A DNA stretch of 64,000 bases from positions 1,116,001-1,180,000 of the forward strand of contig OZ287082.1 in the NCBI GenBank assembly GCA_965645245.1, written 5' to 3'. The DNA comes from Massalongia carnosa. Its lineage: Eukaryota. The stretch's first letter is position 1, and every line of letters begins with the position of its first letter. Shown here in pieces: positions 53,875 through 64,000 of this stretch. A program made the translations under genes and the position numbers. The notes under the pieces were generated by a model that made no database searches, was not told the DNA's origin, and saw only the letters and a program-made list of their open reading frames with translations.

Positions 53875-54264
53875 ATGGTCTTCTCGCAATCGCCGTCCCT
53901 CCGGATTGCGGCCAGCGTGTTCGCGACGATATTCGTCGGTTTCGGGGTCAACGCCATGCTCCGGCCCTTGAACGCGCTTGAGTTCTTCGAGTTCCAGGCG
54001 CCTGCGGCGGCGGCGGACCGGAAGATGGTCGACAGCCTCATGGCCATCTACGGGGCGCGAGACATCTTCATGGGGCTGGCCATATACTCGGCGGCGTATT
54101 ATGGCGACGGCAAGACGCTGGGCTGGATCCTGGTGGCGGGTGGCGGGGTGGCGTTTGTAGATGGCGCGGTTTGCCGGTCGCACGGGAAGGGCGAGTGGAA
54201 TCATTGGGGTTACGCGCCGGTTATCACCGCTGTGGGGAGTCTGTTGCTGGGCGTTTGGGACTAG
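53875..54264 (+). CDS. hypD: Small integral membrane protein (DUF4267-like), probable HypD/AflNa homologue
   Basis: Intact 129-aa hydrophobic ORF with YGARDIFMG and WNHWGY; size and cluster context match HypD as recalled. Confidence 0.75.
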   Translation: MVFSQSPSLRIAASVFATIFVGFGVNAMLRPLNALEFFEFQAPAAAADRKMVDSLMAIYGARDIFMGLAIYSAAYYGDGKTLGWILVAGGGVAFVDGAVCRSHGKGEWNHWGYAPVITAVGSLLLGVWD

Positions 54265-54841
54265 TTTGGGCGAAAAGGGGGGAGACGGGAAGGGGGGGAA
54301 TCGAATCTCGAGACGGATCTTCCACTCCTGTGCGATGATTAATGCGCACGTTCATGTTCGTTAACTTAGCATTGCTGATTTGGCGTGCTTGCCTCTTCAT
54401 CTGTTGTGCGGGGGATTTGGCGTCCGGTACACTTGTAGCTGACCTCGGTTTTGAACACTCTACGACGGATTCAATCGAGAATAACGCAAGGGTGACGCGG
54501 CGAGGCAGGGAAGGATCCGGTTCTCCTCTCCTTCTACCATAATGAAGTATCCGTGATGAGACCAACCTCTTTTAAGTTCGCAAAAGGGGAGGGGTTTGGT
54601 TGACCACAAGAACGGTAATTGGCTTCCGGCGTATCGTCAGCCGTAAGCTATTTCGGCGTCCTTCAAGAATATGATTGTATCACGGTTCAATTCGGAATTG
54701 CTATTTGCTCATATATACTCAAGAAGTTCTTAGAATTATTCTCGTCTGCCTCCTGCTAGACGTTACCAGTGTTTTAGTCTCGCCGCCAATCCCACCGTCT
54801 CCTAATCTCGCCACAAGTCAACGAGATATCCCGGAGCAAAG

Positions 54842-60197: not shown

Positions 60198-63100
60198 TCA
60201 TGTCGACTGCGTCATGATCCGGTCGATGAGGTCGCTAATGAGTTGAACGTGAGGTCTATGCTATTCGCGCAAGTCAGCATCGGTCATCCACACGATGTGG
60301 GCAAAAAGTAAGCGAGGCTCACCATCAACGTGAAATGATTGGCCCCGCTCGCCTGGACAATATCAAACTCGGCCCCAGGCAAGATCGTGTCCCATCCATC
60401 CGGGCCAAATTCCGTTCGTTTCTGAACCATGAAATGCATGCCTTTGATCTTCGGCGCGTCGTTCTCGTCCATGACGGTGTCGGCAGCCCAGACGATGCCT
60501 ACTTTGGGCATGCGACGGGTCTGGAGCGGCGCGACCTTGTAGTCGAGCATCACGTCGACGACCGCCACAAAGTGTGGGATCAAGTACGACGGTGATGCGG
60601 ACGTCCCATCATGACTGCCTCCCGGCTGGTTCGCGAAGAGTCCCACGCGGTTGCAATGCTCATAGAAGGACACGGGTAGCTTTTCCATGACCTGTGGGAC
60701 TGGCGCATCAATGATGATCAACGAATGCACCTCGTCGCCTTGATTCACGAGGGCCTCGGCCGTGACGTACGCGAACGCCCCGCCGGACGACCAGCCGCCG
60801 AGGTGATATGGGCCCTTCGGCTGCCGTCGCCGGATCTCGTTGCAAAAGCTCTCAATCATGGCTCCGTGGGTGCAGTTCATGTTCTCCGCGTCACGGGCAT
60901 ACGGGCAGTTCAGGCCAACGATCGCGACGTCGGACTTGAGGCGCGGGAGGGGGACATAGGAGGAGGCGGAGCCGCCACCGTCGGGGAGCAAAAAGAGGGT
61001 TTTCTTTGCCACTCGGGGGAGGCCTTGCAGAATCACCGAGGTCGAAGGCCGGCAGGAAGGTTGTAGATTCAAGGGAGGTGCGTCGTCGGATGCGCTAGAG
61101 TAACTGCTGCCGCTTTCAGGATCGGAAGTTCCGGAAATAGAACCAGAAACATTGCCACTCCCGTCGCTCAGGAATTCTTCTAGCTTGGAGACAGTGGGTA
61201 GGTCATCGAAGAGAGAAAATGCCGAGTCGAGATCGAGGCTAAGCTCTTCGCGGAAACGGCTGCTGATGACCATGGAACTCAGGGAGTTAATGCCAATGTC
61301 TGCAAAGACGGTCTCGCCGATTAGGTCTTCGACAGCCACTCCGCTTTCTTCGGCAATGATTTGAATAGCAGCTGCGACGGCATCGTTGTTTGTGGTGGGG
61401 ACCGGGGGCTTGGCTTGCCAGGAAGGAGGCGCGGAGGCGGTGTTGCTCTGGGCGATGGGGATGGTTTCTTCCACCGGAAGAGCTCGCTCGCTCGGCTCAG
61501 GGTCGGCAACAGGCGCTAGCCGGGCTTTGGGCTGCTCGGCTTCGCCACTAACTGGAGTAGATTCGGATGAGCCAACCATGTAATCCTTCAATACGCTGAC
61601 TGTGGGACAGTCAACGAAAAGGGAGAACTCGGGACTTAAGTCTATGCCCAAGTCCTCCCTGAGCCTGCTGCCAATCACCATTGAGTTCAGTGAGTCGATT
61701 CCCATACTAGCGAAGTTGCTGTCATCTGTCAGCTCCTCCACAGCGACGCCACTCTCCTCTGAGATGACTTTCAATATTGCTTTAAACTTCTCATCGCTGG
61801 CGCCTCCAGCCTTAGATACTGTGGCCGATGTCCTCGGCAAATCTGGGGCAGGAGATGGCGTAGACTTATCGTCAGGCTGAGACGGAACTCTAGCTGCTCC
61901 GGGCTTCGCGTCAGGAGGGCTTGGCCTGGCCTTCGTGGTTGTAGCTGACTTTCCACCTCGCTGGCGGACGCCTTTATCGAATGCTGACTGTAGTACAGCA
62001 CGCAGCGCTTTGCGCGGAACGGAGCGAAGCTAAAGCGAGGGTCAATATCGCAATCCCCTGCATGCCTCCAGCCGACTCACCGAAAGCCCCCTGAAGAATG
62101 CGACGACCTCGTCACCATCCAAAACGATGGTGTCTCCATGCACGAGGTCACCGGTCTTATCTTTTTGCATCTTGGTGTAGACCTCGTAAGCTTTGTTCTT
62201 CACCAATGGCTGATAGACCTGGAAAGAATCCCAGCCATGGTTTACGAATACTTCTCTATCAAGGTCGGTGTTGTCGTTGGCGTTCATGGCGAATCCTCCC
62301 ACCTGGGTAATTGCATCTACGTAGGCTGGATGCACGGCGAAGGAGCCGTCGTCGTTCGCCACGGAGAAATCCATGATACTCGTTGCTTCATTGTCATCCC
62401 CGTTCAGGACTAGGTCGTCAAGTAGCTTGTAGTCGGGGTGGAAATGAGCCATGTTGCTCATGAGCTTATATCCGCTCTTTCGGTTGTACCTGACAAATTG
62501 ACCGTTCATAATGCCCTCGCGCAACTGGCGGATGTCGGCTTTGTATTCTGACACCTTCTTTTGGAGTGACTTAAGTTGAGCATCGGTTGTGAAGCGAACA
62601 GTACACGTCGCATGCTCAGTATCCAGTTGACCATCGGCCTAGACAAAGTCAGTCGAGCACGTACTCGATTGGGACATGGTAACGTTACATACAAAGTAGG
62701 TGGCGAACTTGATCTTCGCGCTTCTTGTTGTGGCAGCCGCCTTAGGAGGCCAATTCATTGTCAGTGTGGTACGGAGAAGCTGAGGAGTTTGCCCATGAGG
62801 AATCAAGGCCTTCTCCACAACAAGGTCCGACACATCGACCAAACCATCAATGGCGCTAGGGTGACCCGCCCTGATCCTGTCCATGGAGTACTTGCCAACC
62901 TGGAGGGCGATGTCAGCGTAGAATGAAGGGGTACAAAGAGGAATGTCATCAACTCGGTGGCCTTGAGCAATGCCTATCACATCTTTGCGAGAGATATCTG
63001 TCTCAACGACAAATGTGGCGCCCAAGGGCTCTGTTTTCTCTTCCACAACTCTGTGCAGTGTAGTTGTGGCCTTGATCGCCGGGTAGGCCTCTTGTGTTGG

Positions 63101-64000
63101 TTCAAGCTTGGAGGGCCGCCGAGTGGAAGACTCGGTGCTAACTTGGTACTCGGCCGTTTGCAACTCCTGGCCAGGGTTCGCGCAATTGCATTCAGTTTTG
63201 TGGCGATGCAAGCACCAATCACCCTCGTAGGGGATCCAATACTCTTTCAGGTCCCAGCCGTAACTTGGGAGGTCTATCACCCTCTTGGCCGACTCGAATG
63301 GACCGTGATATGCTACCCAGTTAATGTCAGAGCCACTAGTAAAGAGGATTGAGAAAATGCTCTGCAAGTTCGGCCAGACATCTGCATTCTGCGCTAACGT
63401 AGGCAAAACTGTCATCTGAGTGCCAAGGGTCATCTTAAACATGCCACAAAGCAATGGCTTTGGCCCGAGTTCGATGACGATTGTTTTGTCGTTAATGGTC
63501 GCCTTCTCTCTTGTAAATTCTAGCGCTTTGACAAAATCTACCGGCTCTCGGCAATGCTTAGCTAGATATGACGGGCAAAAAACACCGGCCTCTTCGATCA
63601 CATTGCCCATCAGAGGAGAGAGGACAGGCAATTGTGGCTTTTCAAAAGTTACTCCGCTGGCTAGAGCCTCGAAGTCGTCCAAAATTGGCTGAACCTGGGC
63701 GGAGTGAAATGCGAATGGGAGTTTCAAAAGGGTAGTCTTGACACCATTTACAGTAAGAGTTCGCTGTGCATCTAAGACCTCCTCGACCGATCCACTCATG
63801 ACAGTATCCTTCGGGCCGTTGATACACGCCACTTCGCAGTTTGAAGAGGACAGCAACTTCAAAAGAGTTGCTGATGAAGCTCTTATGGCTAGCATTGCGT
63901 GAGTGCCTCGTTGACACCGCTCTTGGAGAAGTTCTGCCCTTTTGCCAACCAGGTAGATTGTGTCGGAAACAGATAAAACGCCAGCGACATATAAGGCCGC
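60198..64000 (-). CDS. pksA: Non-reducing PKS, norsolorinic acid synthase type (AT-PT-ACP-ACP-TE/CLC); 5' part outside the window; introns 62639-62692, 62030-62080, 60261-60322
   Basis: [37 protein letters not shown]; ACPs GIDSL and [35 protein letters not shown]; exons join in frame. Confidence 0.95.

Follow-up and report, generated by a model that had tools for sequence, protein, structure and literature searches.

Five genes at the right end of a 64,000-nucleotide stretch of contig OZ287082.1 (the window) appear to form the left edge of a norsolorinic-acid-type polyketide cluster of the aflatoxin/sterigmatocystin/dothistromin family. We put at about 0.75 the probability that the segment at 53.6-64.0 kb is such an edge, in a lichen-associated fungus, and serves a shortened pigment pathway. 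Norsolorinic acid and averantin stand at the start of aflatoxin synthesis as its earliest stable intermediates, and they have long been known to colour a lichen orange. Judged from their sequences, the five genes most likely serve the synthesis of orange anthraquinones of this type, these two compounds among them. A sequence-only reading of the window had placed hypD-like(+), nor-1(+), hypE-like(-), verA-like(+) and pksA(-) genes here, and Pfam matches and open spliced models confirm each of them in its place (Table 1).

The visible part of pksA is the C-terminal ~55% of the protein; its 5' part, encoding the SAT and KS domains and most of the MAT domain, lies beyond base 64000. Three minus-strand open reading frames (ORFs) at 60284-64000 carry the Pfam domains PP-binding (two stretches), Thioesterase, PS-DH, Acyl_transf_1 and PKS_DH_N. 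Read together, the C-terminal architecture is MAT (partial)-PT-ACP-ACP-TE/CLC, as expected for the non-reducing polyketide synthase (PKS) that makes norsolorinic acid anthrone. Pieces of the protein align with the solved structure of an Aspergillus norsolorinic acid synthase (8cg4), with E values of 6.3e-213 and 8.1e-186, and are colinear with its residues 1059-2154. Likewise, single-domain structures are matched for the TE (3ils, 1.1e-147), PT (3hrq, 8.6e-67) and ACP (2kr5, 1.2e-34) domains. The catalytic residues of Aspergillus PksA, which we take to be 1345, 1543, 1937, 1964 and 2088 in the numbering of the structural papers, are the His/Asp of PT and the Ser/Asp/His of TE/CLC; all five are identical in a tblastn alignment with Aspergillus flavus PksA (P0024).

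Among named proteins the PksA fragment is closest to a Chaetomium homologue (70.0% identity), followed by A. flavus PksA (69.2%), StcA-type enzymes (65-68%) and Dothistroma PksA (65.7%), while PksA-like proteins from metagenome-assembled genomes (MAGs) of lichen fungi reach 58-60%. A FastTree of 39 rows places it in a nine-row clade (support 99) with Aspergillus PksA/StcA and Sordariomycete homologues, and the Dothideomycete PksAs are sister to this clade. A quick IQ-TREE run on 23 rows places it in a 12-row aflatoxin/sterigmatocystin (AF/ST) PksA/StcA clade (support 95). In both trees it pairs with A. flavus PksA (support 94 and 97, respectively). On a test set beforehand, PksA grouped with the PksA/StcA clade rather than with other anthraquinone PKSs. 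Orthology with the PksA-like PKSs of three lichen MAGs (Letrouitia, Pleopsidium and Claussenomyces) was rejected by the approximately unbiased (AU) test (p-AU 1.9e-30), at a cost of 421 log-likelihood units. We also observed that Aspergillus PksA/StcA proteins do not form one clade, as section Flavi goes with the window PksA and the Nidulantes group with Sordariomycetes; monophyly of Aspergillus PksA was rejected with p-AU 0.007, for a group that was named only after the tree had been seen.

The second gene encodes a ketoreductase clustered with the PKS, 4.2 kb from pksA. Its product is 68.4% identical to Aspergillus parasiticus AflD, 70.5% to A. flavus Nor-1 and 72.6% to Dothistroma Nor1, and falls in a 25-row clade (support 99) that holds all characterised Nor-1/StcE proteins. 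The adh_short/adh_short_C2 domains lie at 55203-55655 on the plus strand, within nor-1, and the model keeps the motifs TGASRGIG (TGxxxGxG) and YAVSK (YxxxK). No match of Nor-1 to a versicolorin reductase was found at E 1e-8 or better.

The cytochrome P450 has StcS and AflN proteins as its best named matches (57-64% identical). Pfam p450 is found on both large verA exon ORFs (57636-58121 and 58340-59215, plus strand), the first exon of the gene model encodes an N-terminal membrane anchor, and the heme motif FGPRSCIGQ and the motif EVLR are present. Compared with the related metagenome locus L006, ratios of nonsynonymous to synonymous substitution (dN/dS) of 0.12 and 0.22 indicate that verA is under purifying selection. 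HypE shares 55-70% identity with the EthD genes found at the corresponding place on L006 and on two further metagenome loci, L001 and L002, and its nearest protein clusters in the Atlas are all EthD proteins from Ascomycota. HypD is identical in 78/127 positions (61.4%) to the N-terminal part of a fused DUF4267+SDR (short-chain dehydrogenase/reductase) model, P0250, of Aspergillus ochraceoroseus. PMC3202775 describes HypE and HypD of the aflatoxin cluster: HypD has 129 residues, the same length as in the window, and HypE is likewise an EthD protein. On sequence comparison, PksA, Nor-1 and the P450 fall among AF/ST-cluster proteins. Relatives at higher identity are present among protein clusters for both VerA (76-81%) and Nor-1 (76-79%). 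Because a VerA relative (80%) and a Nor-1 relative (76%) come from contigs of matching lengths (76,264 and 53,265 bp for both), close relatives probably keep verA and nor-1 together.

Composition and coding capacity set the cluster segment apart from the rest of the window. GC content of the right-hand ~10 kb is 51-58%, compared with 38-51% in the remaining window, and every one of eight ORF pieces tested from it has a Pfam match. Spliced models, built with homologues from the searches as guides, contain eight introns of 51-153 nt, all GT..AG, and the ~6.9 kb of coding sequence of the five genes has no frameshift or internal stop. Indices of GC content and of repeat-induced point mutation (RIP) in the cluster are those of normal genes. 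The description of all five genes as intact therefore stands for hypD, nor-1, hypE and verA, and for pksA it stands for the C-terminal ~55% alone. A tRNA scan of the window found none.

We compared the gene order with metagenome contigs, which were scanned with a VerA alignment profile and yielded seven loci; an earlier scan with a single VerA exon had yielded none. The head-to-head hypE(-)-verA(+) pair occurs in three of the seven, beside pksA(-) on L001 (a 39.3 kb record) and L002 (7.7 kb) and without it on L006, so that it is kept in four sampled lineages, the window included. The remaining four loci are short contigs, or their P450s are more distant and lack such neighbours. L001 and L002 read aldo-keto reductase (AKR)(+), SDR(+), glutathione S-transferase (GST)(-), EthD(-), P450(+), pksA(-), and thus share with the window the order and orientation of hypE(-)-verA(+)-pksA(-), with VerA exon identities of 68% (L001) and 61% (L002) and PksA pieces 64-82% identical. 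To the left of hypE, these loci carry the GST, a versicolorin-reductase-like SDR and the AKR, whereas the window carries nor-1 and hypD; in L001, but not in the window, a PRISE-like gene separates verA from pksA. The SDR of L001 matches a versicolorin reductase (PDB 7yb1) at E 1.1e-72. The stretches L001 3112-16962 and L002 2-7719 look like sterigmatocystin-like segments (norA-like AKR, versicolorin-reductase-like SDR, GST, EthD, VerA-like P450 and pksA) of source fungi whose proteins are 61-82% identical to those of the window.

The A. ochraceoroseus model P0250 places hypD beside nor-1. This model (DUF4267+Nor-1) and a second one from A. flavus, P0295, which joins a PF08592 HypC-type anthrone oxidase to Nor-1, are probably annotation errors, and are still evidence of adjacency. 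Because hypE-verA-pksA is common to L001 and L002 and hypD-nor-1 to A. ochraceoroseus, the gene order in the window looks inherited and not newly scrambled, and the earlier claim that only the hypE-verA adjacency is kept was too narrow. What is peculiar about the window is what is missing, namely the ver-1-like, norA-like AKR and GST genes that flank hypE-verA in its relatives. Probes from L001 for the ver-1-like SDR, AKR, GST and PRISE-like genes detected no relic anywhere in the 64 kb, their sole match in the window being the antisense strand of verA. Later-pathway genes within the 64 kb are just verA and hypE; ver-1, norA, vbs, avnA and verB are not there and may be located elsewhere in the genome.

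From these genes we can sketch a pathway. PksA, primed with a hexanoyl starter from a HexA/HexB pair encoded outside the view, would build norsolorinic acid anthrone, its PT domain setting the ring closures and its TE/CLC domain carrying out a Claisen cyclisation that frees the product. The anthrone would be oxidised to norsolorinic acid, and Nor-1 would then reduce the side-chain ketone to give averantin. HypE (EthD) and VerA (P450), a conserved two-gene module, may act jointly as a single oxidative unit whose substrate would be an anthraquinone intermediate. HypD is a small membrane protein, to which we assign no role in the pathway. In the aflatoxin route VerA works downstream of versicolorin A, and a verA-like gene had been taken to imply chemistry beyond averantin. 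That implication is not established here, with the usual partner ver-1 missing from the window, and because no Ver-1 is encoded nearby, it is doubtful that versicolorin A is converted to demethylsterigmatocystin here as in the canonical pathway. Since the ver-1, norA-like and GST genes flanking hypE-verA in L001 and L002 are absent from the window, the pathway is more likely to be a shortened, pigment-making one than a full xanthone or aflatoxin route.

All five gene families of the window recur in the aflatoxin cluster of A. flavus and A. parasiticus (aflC/pksA, aflD/nor-1, aflMa/hypE, aflN/verA and aflNa/hypD). The two have in common hypE beside verA and the identical PT/TE catalytic residues, whereas the window PksA has two ACP domains and that of A. 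flavus has one. The A. flavus order is pksA followed by hypC and nor-1, with norA-ver-1-hypE-verA-hypD in mid-cluster; the fused model P0295 backs its nor-1/hypC adjacency, whereas in the window verA abuts pksA and hypD abuts nor-1. The window further differs from the aflatoxin cluster in its transposon-dense flank and its lichen-associated host. Sterigmatocystin clusters (stcA, stcE, stcS) of Aspergillus section Nidulantes and A. ochraceoroseus have a PKS with two ACPs, as in the window, and adjoining hypD and nor-1 on one strand are common to the window and A. ochraceoroseus; StcS-type P450s share 58-63% identity with the window VerA. Their PksA proteins, 65-68% identical, lie on the opposite side of the AF/ST clade from the window PksA, and gene order relative to pksA differs between the window and what we take to be the published stc order. 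Compared with the dothistromin genes of Dothistroma septosporum and Fulvia fulva, PksA is 65.7% and Nor-1 72.6% identical; the Dothideomycete PksAs form the sister clade, and Dothistroma PksA has three ACPs versus two in the window. The dothistromin genes are dispersed in a repeat-associated genome setting.

To place the host, sampled words of 54000-63900 were looked up in public sequencing runs. All of them (100%) occur in three runs of one organism (A), and 85% occur in a 'lichen metagenome' run from another study. Contigs of this last run span 53599-64000; 62 letters differ from the window and 15 gaps are present (~0.6%). None of the runs listed for the stretch is recorded as RNA. The cluster is evenly covered at single-copy depth, 416 and 782-938 in the three organism-A runs and ~26 in the lichen metagenome. 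Judged from this near-identity, the lichen-metagenome copy belongs to the same species, sampled independently in a lichen, and the suggestion of a lichen fungus as host is upheld by it. A run of a second organism (B) contains 42% of the sampled words; there, pieces at 54977-57278 are identical to the cluster at a depth of 0.4-5.7, as if the same fungus were a minor component. The host is a lichen-associated fungus outside the annotated species, and most likely the lichen-forming partner. An Aspergillus host was considered and rejected: PDB matches look very close in the thioesterase (TE) domain, yet over the whole fragment PksA is 69.2% identical to that of A. flavus and no named protein exceeds 73%.

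The prediction that the host is not a known producer also held, as best named identities are 70% for PksA, 73% for Nor-1 and 64% for VerA and literature searches turned up no lichen for which a PksA-type cluster has been described; a 2009 paper on a Solorina crocea PKS gene could bear on priority. Solorina crocea is reported to contain solorinic acid, norsolorinic acid, averantin and 6-O-methylaverantin (PMC11943413), and a 2025 S. crocea genome paper states that some polyketide clusters 'should be involved' in these pigments (PMC12387558). Solorina as the source of the window is a guess that fits by chemistry alone.

Sites of the AflR type were also examined. Strict TCGN5CGA sites include one before hypD and one before nor-1 (Table 1), with none in the hypE-verA region, and no AflR/AflS regulator gene lies in the window. 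Over the whole window the motif is not significantly enriched: 25 sites were counted against 16.9 expected, and 3/100 shuffles reach 25. The window-wide count is inflated because a tandem array at 20410-20908 carries TCGATGGTCGA in each unit; this array consists of ~9.9 copies of a 50-nt unit with 95% matches.

The rest of the window, at least 53 kb, is taken up by transposons up to a border ~300 bp upstream of hypD, placed there because long unique contigs in public runs start at 53503-53599. In these runs the depth of transposon bins reaches 3 to 390x that of cluster bins. Between 1 and 53800 there are 46 stop-to-stop ORFs of at least 110 aa, of which 30 were scanned and ten, mostly antisense overlaps, were left out. 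Transposon domains were found in seven of eight start-codon ORFs scanned and in 8/30 stop-to-stop ORFs, the other 22 having no match; none of the scanned ORFs of 1-53800 has a non-transposon domain. Many repeat fragments accompany the named elements, and RIP-like dinucleotide indices are confined to 24-32 kb and 40-52 kb. The sequence-only reading had described more than 53 kb of decayed transposons. The transposon-only border stood, but decay of every element did not: the copia polyprotein ORF at 494-3058 (854 aa) is still open, and the two long terminal repeats (LTRs) of the Ty3/gypsy element are 98% alike. That element is nearly intact, with five consecutive ORFs (gag; protease; reverse transcriptase; RNase H/integrase zinc finger; integrase-chromodomain) split only by single stops, which suggests a recent insertion.

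Further repeats were noted in the field. A direct repeat of 179 nt (1-179 and 9420-9598, 92% alike, 9.4 kb apart) may be the LTR pair of the copia element at 494-3058 or part of a nested element. Inverted arms of ~1 kb at 38095-39105 and 45893-46903, 92-97% complementary with ~7 kb between them, could be a large terminal-inverted-repeat element spanning 38095-46903 or two opposite copies of one transposon. Atlas matches of the copia polyprotein, as of HypE, are to Ascomycota or plant copia clusters only.

Table 1. Features of the window, with positions counted from its first base.
Feature	Position	Strand	Description and basis
hypD-like	53875-54264	+	single exon, 129 aa, DUF4267 membrane protein; Pfam E 2.1e-33
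nor-1 (AflD/StcE-type norsolorinic acid ketoreductase)	54842-56019	+	281 aa; introns 54972-55071, 55613-55765, 55866-55944
hypE-like	56553-56939	-	single exon, 128 aa, EthD (Pfam E 4.1e-17); divergent from verA
hypE/verA divergent intergenic region	56940-57448		509 bp, presumed shared promoter; from gene models
verA/AflN/StcS-like cytochrome P450	57449-59215	+	541 aa; introns 57563-57632, 58118-58188
pksA 3' part	60198-64000	-	1211 aa visible; introns 62639-62692, 62030-62080, 60261-60322
AflR-type palindrome TCGGAATCCGA	53645-53655		230 bp upstream of hypD; lead only
AflR-type palindrome TCGAATCTCGA	54301-54311		upstream of nor-1
Transposon-only flank	1-53550		Pfam, repeats, read depth, RIP indices
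copia	494-3058; 21.1-24.1 kb		Pfam
Tc5/pogo-like	7.3 kb; 29.4-29.9 kb		Pfam
LINE	11.4-13.9 kb	-	Pfam
piggyBac-like	15.6-16.3 kb	-	Pfam
Ty3/gypsy element	31893-37778		LTRs 31893-32130, 37541-37778, each 238 nt, 98% alike

Several points weigh against a shortened pigment pathway in a lichen-forming fungus. In view are five genes, with about half of PksA; hexA/hexB, hypC, aflR/aflS and an O-methyltransferase gene are not seen, nor is any HypC-like sequence within the window. The intact, constrained verA-hypE pair is unneeded for norsolorinic acid or averantin, so that the product could lie further along the route. Trees for PksA come from quick or FastTree runs and cover only the C-terminal half of the protein, the VerA tree, whose backbone lacks resolution, does not establish orthology, and dN/dS of hypE versus L006 is 0.6, calculated from just 71 codons. 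A lichen-dwelling fungus other than the main partner may be the host. The segment could also border a complete pathway of the sterigmatocystin or dothistromin type, with ver-1, vbs, avnA and verB beyond pksA or elsewhere as in the fragmented Dothistroma arrangement and with versicolorin- or xanthone-type products; we consider this unlikely. It would explain why verA and hypE are intact and verA under purifying selection, given that VerA follows versicolorin A in the aflatoxin route, and L001 and L002 do combine this hypE-verA-pksA core with ver-1-like, norA-like and GST genes. Those very genes, however, leave no ver-1, AKR, GST or PRISE-like relic in our 64 kb, and the lichen chemistry reported in PMC11943413 is of early anthraquinones only.

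We give little credence to the sequence coming from a lichen-inhabiting (lichenicolous or endolichenic) fungus or a co-assembled contaminant instead of the lichen-forming fungus. Identical pieces at a depth of only 0.4-5.7 in the organism-B run would agree with such a source, as would a PksA that does not group with PKSs of other lichen-fungus MAGs. But the window P450 sits on a contig of 2,023,447 bp, single-copy depth is even in the organism-A runs (416, 782-938) and ~26 in the independent lichen metagenome, and all four runs contain the flanking transposon families in abundance. It is just as improbable that invading transposons have left the cluster edge stranded as a silent relic, its frames open and its genes not expressed or productive. 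Transposons come within ~300 bp of the hypD start, parts of the flank have RIP-like composition, and the neighbours that hypE has in relatives are missing in the window. Against a relic speak the absence of frameshifts and stops over ~6.9 kb of coding sequence, the eight GT..AG introns, the kept catalytic residues, a lichen-metagenome copy only ~0.6% different, and GC and RIP indices like those of normal genes.

A wider reading, which we consider rather improbable, goes beyond the norsolorinic-acid-type cluster edge. The locus would encode the synthesis of hexanoyl-anthraquinones, namely the pigments solorinic acid, norsolorinic acid and averantin, in a Peltigeralean lichen, for instance Solorina. 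PksA would then be sister to the aflatoxin PksA of section Flavi, and not to other lichen PKSs, through a move of the cluster core between an Aspergillus-like lineage and the lichen fungus, or else the cluster would predate the divergence of Eurotiomycetes and Lecanoromycetes. The retained VerA-HypE pair would have taken on another function in a pathway without Ver-1.

The PksA-Nor-1 locus makes the link between a lichen pigment and a polyketide cluster testable, and it extends the patchy distribution of a toxin-family cluster to a lichen-associated lineage. It is also a case of a secondary-metabolite cluster whose immediate neighbour is a very large transposon field, young in part. As a natural shortened pathway, it would offer a way to learn the roles of VerA, HypE and HypD without the late aflatoxin enzymes.

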